Origin: Eledone cirrhosa
Lineage: Eukaryota
NCBI GenBank assembly: GCA_964016885.1
Contig: OZ024765.1
Location: 372,001-436,000 of the forward strand
Length of the DNA stretch: 64,000 bases
Reading direction: 5' to 3'
Part shown: positions 30,473 through 32,015 of the stretch, piece by piece
How positions within the stretch are numbered: position 1 is the stretch's first letter
How the letters are laid out: each line of letters starts with the position of its first letter
Made by a program: the position numbers and the translations under genes
The notes under the pieces: generated by a model
Databases searched by the model: none
Told to the model about the DNA's origin: nothing
What the model saw: only the letters and a program-made list of their open reading frames with translations

Positions 30473-32015
30473 ACATCCCTTTTTGCTGGGATTTTTGAAA
30501 ATAGGTTCATAAATATCAATTTTCAATATTTGTTTGTAGCAGTCTCTGTGGCCTAGTGGGAAGTATTAGACACGGTGGAAATGCTGGTCTGAGGTTCAAT
30601 CCTGTCCTAAGCTTTTTCATATTTTTTATCAAAATCAAAACTGAAAATGTTAGTGTAGGGCCAGGATTGAACCCTAAACCAGGATCACTAACGTCTCTAA
30701 TACTTCCCACTGCACCACAGAGACTGCTATATATAACTACTGAAAATTGATATTTATAAACCTATTTCAAATAAATTAGTATATAGCTATTTAAATTTAA
30801 AGGATTAAATTCTCCAAATAGAAATCTCCAGAATGATAATTCTGTCTTTACTTAATCGTCAACATTGGTGAAAAAAACAACACTACATCTCTTCTTGCTG
30901 GAGTTTTGAAAGTAGGTTTATATATATCAATTTTCAATACTTATTCGTTGCAGTCTCTGTGGCCTAGTGGGAAGTTTTAGAGACAGTGAATATCCTGGTC
31001 TGGGGTTCAATCCTCTCGTAAACTTTTTCAATTTTTTAATCAAAATCAAAACTGAAAAAAGTTTAGTGTAGGATCAGGATTGAACCCCAGACCAGGATCT
31101 CTACCGTCTCTAATACTTCCCACTGCGCCACAGAGACCGCTACATATAACTACTGAAATTGATATTTATAAACCTATTTCAAATAAATTAGTATATAACT
31201 ATTTAAATTTAAGGCTTAAATTCTCCAAATAGAAATCTCCAGAATGATAATTCTGCCTTTTCTTAATCATTAAAATTGGTGAAAAAAAACAACACTACAT
31301 CTCTTTTGCTGGAGTTTTGAAAGTAGGTTTATATATATCAATTTTCAATAGTTATTTGTAGCAGTCTCTGTGGCCTAGTGGGAAGTATTAGAGACGGTGG
31401 AAATACTGGTCTGAGGTTCAATCCTGTCCTAAGCTTTTTTCAATTTTTTTATCAAAATCAAAACTGAAAAAAGTTTAGCGTAGGGCCAGGATTGAACCCT
31501 AAACCAGGATCTCTACCGTCTCTAATACTTCCCACTGCGCCACAGAGACTGCTATATATAACTACTGAAAATTGATATTTATAAACCTATTTCAAATAAA
31601 TTAGTATATAACTATTTAAATTTAAAGGATTAAATTCTCCAAATGGAAATCTCCAGAATGATAATTCTGTCTTTACTTAATCGTCAAAATTAGTAAACAA
31701 AAACAACACTACATCTCTTCTGCTGGAGTTTTGAAAGTAGGTTTATATATATCAATTTTCAATACTTATTAGTAGCAATCTCTGTGGCCTAGTGGGAAGT
31801 ATTAGAGACGGCGGATATCCTCGTCTGGGGTTCAATCCTCACCTAAACTTTTTCAATTTTTTTATCAAAATCAAAACTGAAAAAAGTTTAGTGTAGGGCC
31901 AGGATTGAACTCTAAACCAGGATCTCTACCGCCTCTAATACTTCCCACTGCGCCACAGAGACTGCTATATATACATACTGAAAATTGATATTTAAAAACC
32001 TATTTCAAATAAATA
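30473..32015. repeat. tandem array of ~412-bp units (3.7 copies), each with an inverted pair of tRNA-like cassettes
   Basis: Unit starts at 30473, 30885, 31297, 31711; each has TGGCCTAGTGG..GGTTCAATCC..T5-6 on plus and TGG(C/T)GCAGTGG..(G/A)GTTCAATCC..T4-6 on minus. Confidence 0.9.

Follow-up and report, generated by a model that had tools for sequence, protein, structure and literature searches.

Layout of the array and its surroundings

Within the window, that is, the whole 64,000-nucleotide stretch of Eledone cirrhosa DNA analysed here, lies a tandem array of palindromic units, each carrying two inward-facing cassettes with tRNA-type promoter boxes (Table 1). Tandem Repeats Finder (TRF) delimited the array at 30464–32014 with a period of 411, 3.8 copies, and 91% matches, and the unit alignment gave a mean column identity of 89%. 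The tandem repeat of four ~412-bp units described in the original prediction is therefore real, but its count is 3.8, corresponding to four palindromes of ~280 bp and only three full spacers (~132 bp). Since the inverted repeat spans an upstream flank of ~47 bp and then runs on through the T-runs to a loop of ~12 nt, each unit contains a single ~280-nt palindrome. The mirrored arms expected in every unit were recovered as eight arms in four palindromes. The convergent terminators are likewise present; as the two halves of the palindrome, they follow simply from its geometry. Long inverted arms, as in the definition of foldback transposons and MITEs, are thus found in the array, together with a tandem unit bearing a tRNA-related, box-bearing segment, by which repeats of the OAX and PolIII/TAN type are defined in excerpts of PMC10702118.

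Table 1 Features of the array and its flanks (positions in the window)
Feature	Position	Strand	Details
Left flank, common to paralogous arm-bearing loci	30366..30493	.	~80% alike in one 345-nt contig, which occurs in three runs from a single sample
Tandem array, 3.8 units of 411–413 bp	30473..32015	.	TRF and unit alignment
Palindrome 1 (arms L1 and R1 with upstream flanks)	30494..30771	.	
Arm L1	30542..30617	+	A box 30549, G53 at 30594, T5 at +72; AGAGAC changed to AGACAC
Arm R1	30644..30724	-	A box 30717; only T4 at +78
Spacer 1	30772..30904	.	
Palindrome 2	30905..31183	.	
Arm L2	30953..31028	+	A box 30960, T5 at +72; internal T4 ahead of box B
Arm R2	31055..31137	-	A box 31130, T6 at +78; left-type letters at 48, 50
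Spacers 2, 3	31184..31315, 31597..31729	.	
Palindrome 3, one long hairpin	31316..31596	.	fold -167.5 kcal/mol, z -23.9
Upstream flank (L3 example; mirrored in all arms)	31317..31363	+	TATA-like element and AATTTTCA
Arm L3	31364..31440	+	A box 31371, B box 31415, T6 at 31435
Arm R3	31467..31549	-	A box 31542, B box 31498, T6 at +78
Palindrome 4	31730..32009	.	
Arm L4	31778..31853	+	A box 31785, T5 at +72; starts with A in place of G
Arm R4	31880..31962	-	A box 31955, A in place of G52, T6 at +78
Right flank, common to paralogous palindrome-bearing contig	32010..32120	.	18 other letters in 111

Each arm comprises the common upstream flank of ~47 bp, the start heptamer GTCTCTG (ATCTCTG in L4), an A box at positions 8–18, a B box at 53–61, and a T-run. 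In all eight arms, T8...G53...C61 stands in exact tRNA register, with the spacing of an intron-less tRNA that has a short variable loop. A consensus pattern of the boxes, which was composed after the arms had been seen, matched only the 8 arms when both strands of the 64 kb were scanned, and when one arm was shuffled 20,000 times with its dinucleotides preserved, 0 shuffles matched; a profile built from the 8 arms detected no further arm copies in the 64-kb window. A run of T4–T6 is retained in every arm, with the first T4+ run at +72 in the left arms and at +78 in the right ones, so placed that the arms terminate 11–17 nt past box B, and the mean column identity of the aligned arms is 84%. 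Upstream, a TATA-like element occurs at about -34 (6/8 arms) and AATTTTCA at -24..-17 (7/8 arms). The predicted type-2 Pol III anatomy, with A and B boxes in tRNA register followed by a T-run, was confirmed in all arms, as were the coordinates given for unit 3 (A 31371, B 31415, and T6 31435; on the minus strand, A 31542–31532, B 31498–31489, and A6 31467–31472), and the tRNA ancestry of the arms is supported. The description of boxes and terminator thus applies to every arm but not uniformly, because R1 has TGGTGCAGTGG and a T4 only, R4 carries A at 52, and L2 contains a T4 before box B.

Several other features were recorded in the window. A stop-free frame of 319 codons on the minus strand (24200–25159) contains a Cys-rich stretch as well as a motif, YVGST...RLYRH, that resembles the GIY-YIG end of a Penelope-like retroelement; Pfam returned 0 families for this frame at E ≤ 0.001 and also at E ≤ 1. 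TRF detected a 40-bp minisatellite at 41523–44190 (two overlapping rows, 32.7 and 42.2 copies, 92–94% matches), a 95-bp unit repeated 3.1 times at 39781–40072, and, at 46072–46499, a 194-bp tandem pair of the SINE-like repeat that also lies beside the array. An assembly gap (200 bases of N) lies at 49729–49928. On its left, the array is adjoined by nested pieces of this SINE-like repeat, which differs from the arms (29868–30281), with 11 further BLAST matches of 71–88% in the window for the part at 30083–30281. At 30360–30410, the letters that come after a B-box-like GTTCAAATC are similar to the 3' end region of the longer relatives described below, although the arm profile scores nothing there, and a separate deep repeat match covers 30366–30396. 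On the right, past a CT/GTCT microsatellite, a perfect inverted repeat of 9 bp around a 12-nt loop is found at 32376–32405, for which the search gave no matching subterminal repeat.

RNA identity, folding, and conservation of the arms

The arms are neither tRNA genes nor members of an Rfam family at threshold. ARAGORN found 0 tRNA genes in the window and 0/8 arms at 90–95% of its threshold; the mutually inconsistent His, Leu, and Phe calls obtained under relaxed settings were discarded, as 9–31 background calls appeared in the window at the same thresholds, and the tRNA-Asn/Arg resemblance put forward in the original prediction is a putative one. Canonical stems of the arms pair poorly (acceptor, 2–4 of 7 pairs; anticodon stem, 1–3 of 5), and both results bear out the earlier statement that there is no cloverleaf. 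With Rfam, 0 families reached the gathering score in 64 kb, and neither the array nor the single arms R3 and L3 matched the tRNA model at E ≤ 10. When these two of the eight arms were scanned singly, R3 gave 2 sub-threshold matches and L3 gave 0, none of them to vault RNA or Y RNA, so that the proposed comparison with tRNA, vault RNA, and Y RNA families yielded no match at threshold. Over the array, Rfam produced sub-threshold matches only, mostly to hairpin models: those of the miRNA type were rejected, since all lie below the gathering score and reflect the palindrome, as was a match to SpF41 (19.3 bits versus 52). A hammerhead core is the defining feature of retrozymes and hammerhead satellites; CTGANGA is absent from both strands of 30291–32130, with no Rfam match either, and this class was also rejected for the unit.

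Folded singly, the arms gave z values from -2.09 to +1.67, with R1 as the only one of the eight below -2. The consensus fold of the arms is the GTCTCT/AGAGAC helix, and the internal AGAGAC can indeed pair with the 5' GTCTCT in most of them, as had been noticed (6/8, broken in the other two). A selected structure, however, found no backing in the covariation check, a weak test with little variation to work on, which gave 0 pairs changed on both sides and 1 changed on one side.

Variation along the array was compared between the boxes and the remaining sequence. Relative to the rest of the palindrome, the boxes contain fewer variable sites (2/42 versus 39/235; one-sided p = 0.03, post hoc), the p values of such comparisons ranging from 0.03 to 0.04, and positions 53–62 of the B box are invariant in 8/8 arms. 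Relative to the spacer in units 1–3, however, the difference is not significant (1/40 versus 10/114 variable; p = 0.29, low power), and box conservation above the spacer level, on which the earlier proposal had been made to depend, was thus not substantiated. Arm positions 32–52 and 62–77 vary even more than the spacer (17/68 versus 10/114; p = 0.0045), and it is largely because of this hypervariable arm middle that the boxes look conserved against the rest of the palindrome. Simple neutral drift leaves the excess variation of the arm middle unexplained.

The history of the array can be read in part from the same alignment. Left and right arms differ by six fixed substitutions and a 6-nt indel in 4/4 units, which indicates that the inversion preceded the tandem amplification, as originally proposed. 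All four sites that split the units two against two group units 1 and 3 against units 2 and 4, and letters of the opposite arm are carried by L1 and R2; from these two patterns we infer a duplication as a dimer and patchy conversion between arms.

Relatives in sequencing reads and the flanks of the array

Copies were surveyed in four (X1–X4) of six listed sequencing runs, aligned to 30320–32120 at 80% likeness. Runs X1–X3 come from one sample of one study, possibly the source of the assembly, with 47–68% of sampled words; X4 consists of RAD reads from a second sample and study, and three RAD runs bear the same species label. The run search listed no RNA run that contains the stretch, a result that speaks neither for nor against expression. 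In X1–X3, 558, 584, and 535 contigs were aligned, more than half of them below 90% alike, and in X4, 503 reads were aligned, 464 of them below 90% alike and 99 in 100 continuing into unlike sequence. At place 31102, the summed depth reached 7470, 7247, and 2539 (X1–X3), with 53–57 contigs carrying another letter, compared with 3.6–6.3 for contigs identical to the array locus; summed contig depth is not copy number, and these values are read only as "abundant". From these sequences, the arms are judged to belong to an abundant, diverged repeat family of E. cirrhosa. As in SINEs, a tRNA-derived, box-bearing head occurs in many interspersed copies (hundreds of diverged contigs); the arms themselves contain no SINE body, LINE-derived tail, simple-repeat tail, or target-site duplication. 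Separately, summed contig depth at 31723–31783 was 26,000–33,000 in X1–X3 versus ~1 in X4, probably owing to one very deep repeat contig that matches a short AT-rich piece.

The parent of the family was seen as 30-letter majority consensuses of loose ends (agreement 0.65–1.0) and not as whole copies, and four kinds of relatives could be told apart. In one kind (a), represented among the loose ends listed by 22 contigs and 40 reads, the T-run lies at ~+84 and CAGTTT comes next, as it does in the right arms; another (b) shows no T4 in the next 30 letters (10–12 contigs and 68 reads among those listed). In both, positions 1–6 can pair with 68–73, as judged by eye, whereas the arms cannot form this pairing; the arms are thus ~6 and 12 nt shorter than these relatives and lack the acceptor-like strand. 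The acceptor-like pairing of the relatives also shows one-sided changes (by eye). In a third kind (c), which breaks at +1, the upstream consensus matches positions -30..-1 at 21/30 (17 contigs) and 16/30 (62 reads) by hand count among those listed, and the last (d) runs into unrelated DNA at +1 or -11. AATTTTCA keeps its register in the loose-end consensuses of diverged relatives, and this retention is the one feature that a plain SINE leaves unexplained; the presence of the upstream flank in many relatives fits a real promoter element as well as copying at the DNA level. Past 31351, two X2 contigs share the common upstream flank and then carry a different 5' heptamer, yet their A box keeps its register; the upstream element may therefore also head older subfamilies.

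Both flanks of the array recur at paralogous loci, represented by contigs of low depth (2–13). The left flank, up to 30424, is joined to arm starts at four places in contigs, and a 345-nt contig carries 30366–30525 at ~80% together with an inverted arm. On the other side, an 808-nt contig consists of a palindrome of two left-type arms followed by 32010–32120 at 84%, and the joints in the paralogs connect 30424 to arm starts and 31316 to 32010. Since both flanks are common to paralogous loci, the palindrome by itself does not constitute the mobile unit. No target-site duplication was found at the array edges, where only 5-mers at odd distances occur, and no pair of subTIRs above chance was found between the flanks in 29695–32660. 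The candidate TCCCTTTT, the only inverted 8-mer between the flanks, was rejected as a subTIR because it lies at chance level (943/2000 shuffles). A segment of the spacer (30821–30876) matches a different, deep repeat of the genome, and a suspected spacer relative at 52243–52310 was rejected.

Origin of the array and competing readings

Tandem repeats with tRNA-related Pol III segments have been described in amphibians, namely PolIII/TAN of newt (~360 nt), OAX/satellite I of Xenopus, and Rana/polIII; in the excerpts of PMC10702118 consulted, PolIII/TAN is described as transcribed in vitro. All three resemble the present array in having a tandem unit of a few hundred bp with a tRNA-related segment and no proven parent SINE, but compared by description, not by sequence, the Eledone monomer differs from theirs in being a palindrome with two inward-facing cassettes and in its mere 3.8 units. 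Likewise, the SINE-derived satellites (sSat) of squamates have units built from a portion of an abundant tRNA-related repeat, in some cases with added sequence of foreign origin (PMC10702118), and the words "inverted" and "palindrom" are absent from the main text of that paper as available. The sSat definition given there calls for four or more units that stem from a portion of an identified SINE; the array has 3.8 units of an abundant parent, which is not established as a SINE, unlike that of sSat, and many of whose relatives carry the upstream flank. In bivalves, which are also molluscs, tandem and palindromic SINE structures with tRNA-derived inverted pairs and short arrays were reported, and hairpin dsRNA was suggested for them in the portion of PMC11481361 used here; those structures are copies of HCD SINEs, whereas the Eledone unit is a shortened head with upstream flank and T-run, in which the palindrome serves as the tandem unit. 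Helenus and Ajax, characterized in the descriptions at hand by direct LTRs with PBS and PPT and not by inverted arms, were rejected.

Candidates for the parent family were also considered among octopus elements. The octopus SINEs OR1 and OR2 are of tRNA-Arg origin. Together with OK, they are named in the passages available from PMC10886601, PMC4758252, and PMC4824008, and form a possible parent family, considered by name and not by sequence. In O. vulgaris, 893 unclassified SINE families with recently active insertions are mentioned in the accessible part of PMC13282606.

According to the reading that we prefer, with a probability of about 0.6, the array would consist of 3'-shortened, likely decaying cassettes of a tRNA-derived family that were inverted once and amplified in tandem at the DNA level, and not kept as RNA genes. 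One cassette of the family, along with its terminator and ~47 bp of the DNA upstream, would have been copied into an inverted tail-to-tail pair centred just past the terminator, through fold-back or template switch. Past box B, the right arms would then have lost ~6 nt and the left arms ~12 nt, the acceptor-like strand among them, and by default this loss would make the 5' GTCTCT available for pairing with AGAGAC. The palindrome and a spacer containing a piece of another repeat may subsequently have been amplified by unequal exchange, probably through a dimer and with patchy conversion between arms, and the block with its flanks would be present at a few other loci. By analogy with OAX and PolIII/TAN, most arms are probably still Pol III templates, with predicted RNAs of 72–83 nt and no conserved fold. 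The special locus of eight genes contemplated in the original prediction did not hold up, because the arms are shortened members of an abundant family, only one of the eight folds below z -2, and compensatory pairs are absent. Evidence against the reading preferred here comes from the lower variation of the boxes than of the rest, the invariant B box positions 53–62, the T-run in 8/8 arms, the upstream flank in relatives, and the excess variation of the arm middle; moreover, the parent family is represented by loose-end consensuses and the paralogs by contigs of low depth.

Vault, snaR, and BC1-type genes offer a comparison for the view that the arms are eight members, set in convergent pairs, of a lineage-specific family of functional Pol III RNA genes that are tRNA-like, exist in many copies, and have an upstream element of their own. 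We regard this as unlikely, although the exact tRNA register and T-run in all arms, the TATA-like element at -34 and AATTTTCA at -24 (the latter in register in diverged relatives), the acceptor-like pairing retained in relatives with one-sided changes, and the lower variability of the boxes (p 0.03–0.04) speak in its favour; the arms lack a consistent fold and covariation, their 3' parts have been lost stepwise relative to the relatives, the boxes are not significantly better kept than the spacer, and the abundance and divergence of the family are repeat-like, with no Rfam family. The internal T4 of L2 and the mere T4 of R1 are lesions that also weigh against selection on RNA. A wider form of the idea, which seems quite improbable, would make the whole a high-copy family of tRNA-shaped Pol III RNA genes of ~70–90 nt, with AATTTTCA at -24, a TATA-like element at -34, an acceptor-like stem, and a terminator, spread by DNA-level duplication as tail-to-tail pairs; the array would then be a young cluster whose members are shortened, and the pairs would yield either small RNAs of both strands or else long hairpins that regulate the family. 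Should this wider form be true, the small RNAs would form a class that is new, lineage-specific, and made by Pol III.

A non-autonomous DNA transposon with the tRNA-like cassette as its cargo, either of the foldback/MITE kind or a Helentron-type HINE with the array as its central repeats, is an improbable identity for the palindrome or for the larger block. The long inverted arms, the shortness of the array and the conservation of its left and right flanks at several loci, and the nearby microsatellite (32124–32342) and 9-bp inverted repeat (32376–32405) are compatible with it, and HINEs carry short arrays in molluscs according to the available text of PMC7492417, where Cg_HINE and Pearl non-autonomous Helentrons likewise have short tandem repeats with flanks common to loci. 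In the HINE layout given there, a 5' subTIR, an inverted repeat, and a microsatellite lie on the left, and a 3' subTIR and a palindrome within ~60 bp on the right of the array; in 29695–32660, although true element ends may lie elsewhere, the GTCY-type microsatellite is instead on the wrong side, and no subTIR pair stands above chance, the sole inverted 8-mer included. Foldback transposons such as Tetris have long inverted non-coding arms and are linked to satellite birth (PMC4079207, in part), but our unit has neither 8–10-bp target-site duplications nor tandem modules in its arms of ~140 bp, and tRNA goes unmentioned in the portion of that paper at hand. A transposon is further opposed by the missing duplication at the array edges and by homology to the paralogs that extends past the palindrome ends. 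Retention of the unit as a source of long hairpin dsRNA upon read-through, from a host intron or past the weak terminators, for small RNAs or A-to-I editing directed against the parent family appears very unlikely: each unit does fold as a ~280-nt hairpin, its arms match an abundant family, and the idea was raised for bivalve SINE palindromes in the part of PMC11481361 seen. Any recent inverted duplication folds likewise, however, Pol III would stop at T5–T6 and not reach the other arm, the window yielded no host gene, and the mismatches between arms are unrepaired. Clustered tRNA-type promoters act as barriers elsewhere, and with its invariant B boxes in 8/8 arms the array might be imagined as a TFIIIC-bound chromatin boundary of eight B boxes; this is hardly credible, as no adjoining gene or domain border was identified, box conservation does not significantly exceed that of the spacer, and nothing at the locus tells use from side effect.

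Regarding earlier records of the sequence, six arm motifs of 16–18 letters had no match in the literature searched, though the family may already stand in Repbase, Dfam, or SINEBase, and the arm pattern gave 0 matches in metagenome contigs, viral contigs, and prokaryote genomes. The novelty most likely lies in the palindromic monomer among tRNA-derived Pol III tandem repeats. If the preferred reading, DNA-level amplification of inverted and shortened cassettes, is true, the locus would offer a snapshot of the birth of a satellite from a tRNA-derived cassette, through inversion, 3' loss, amplification as a dimer, and conversion between arms, and an apparently undescribed abundant repeat family would be added to the library of the species, mainly of interest to repeat specialists.
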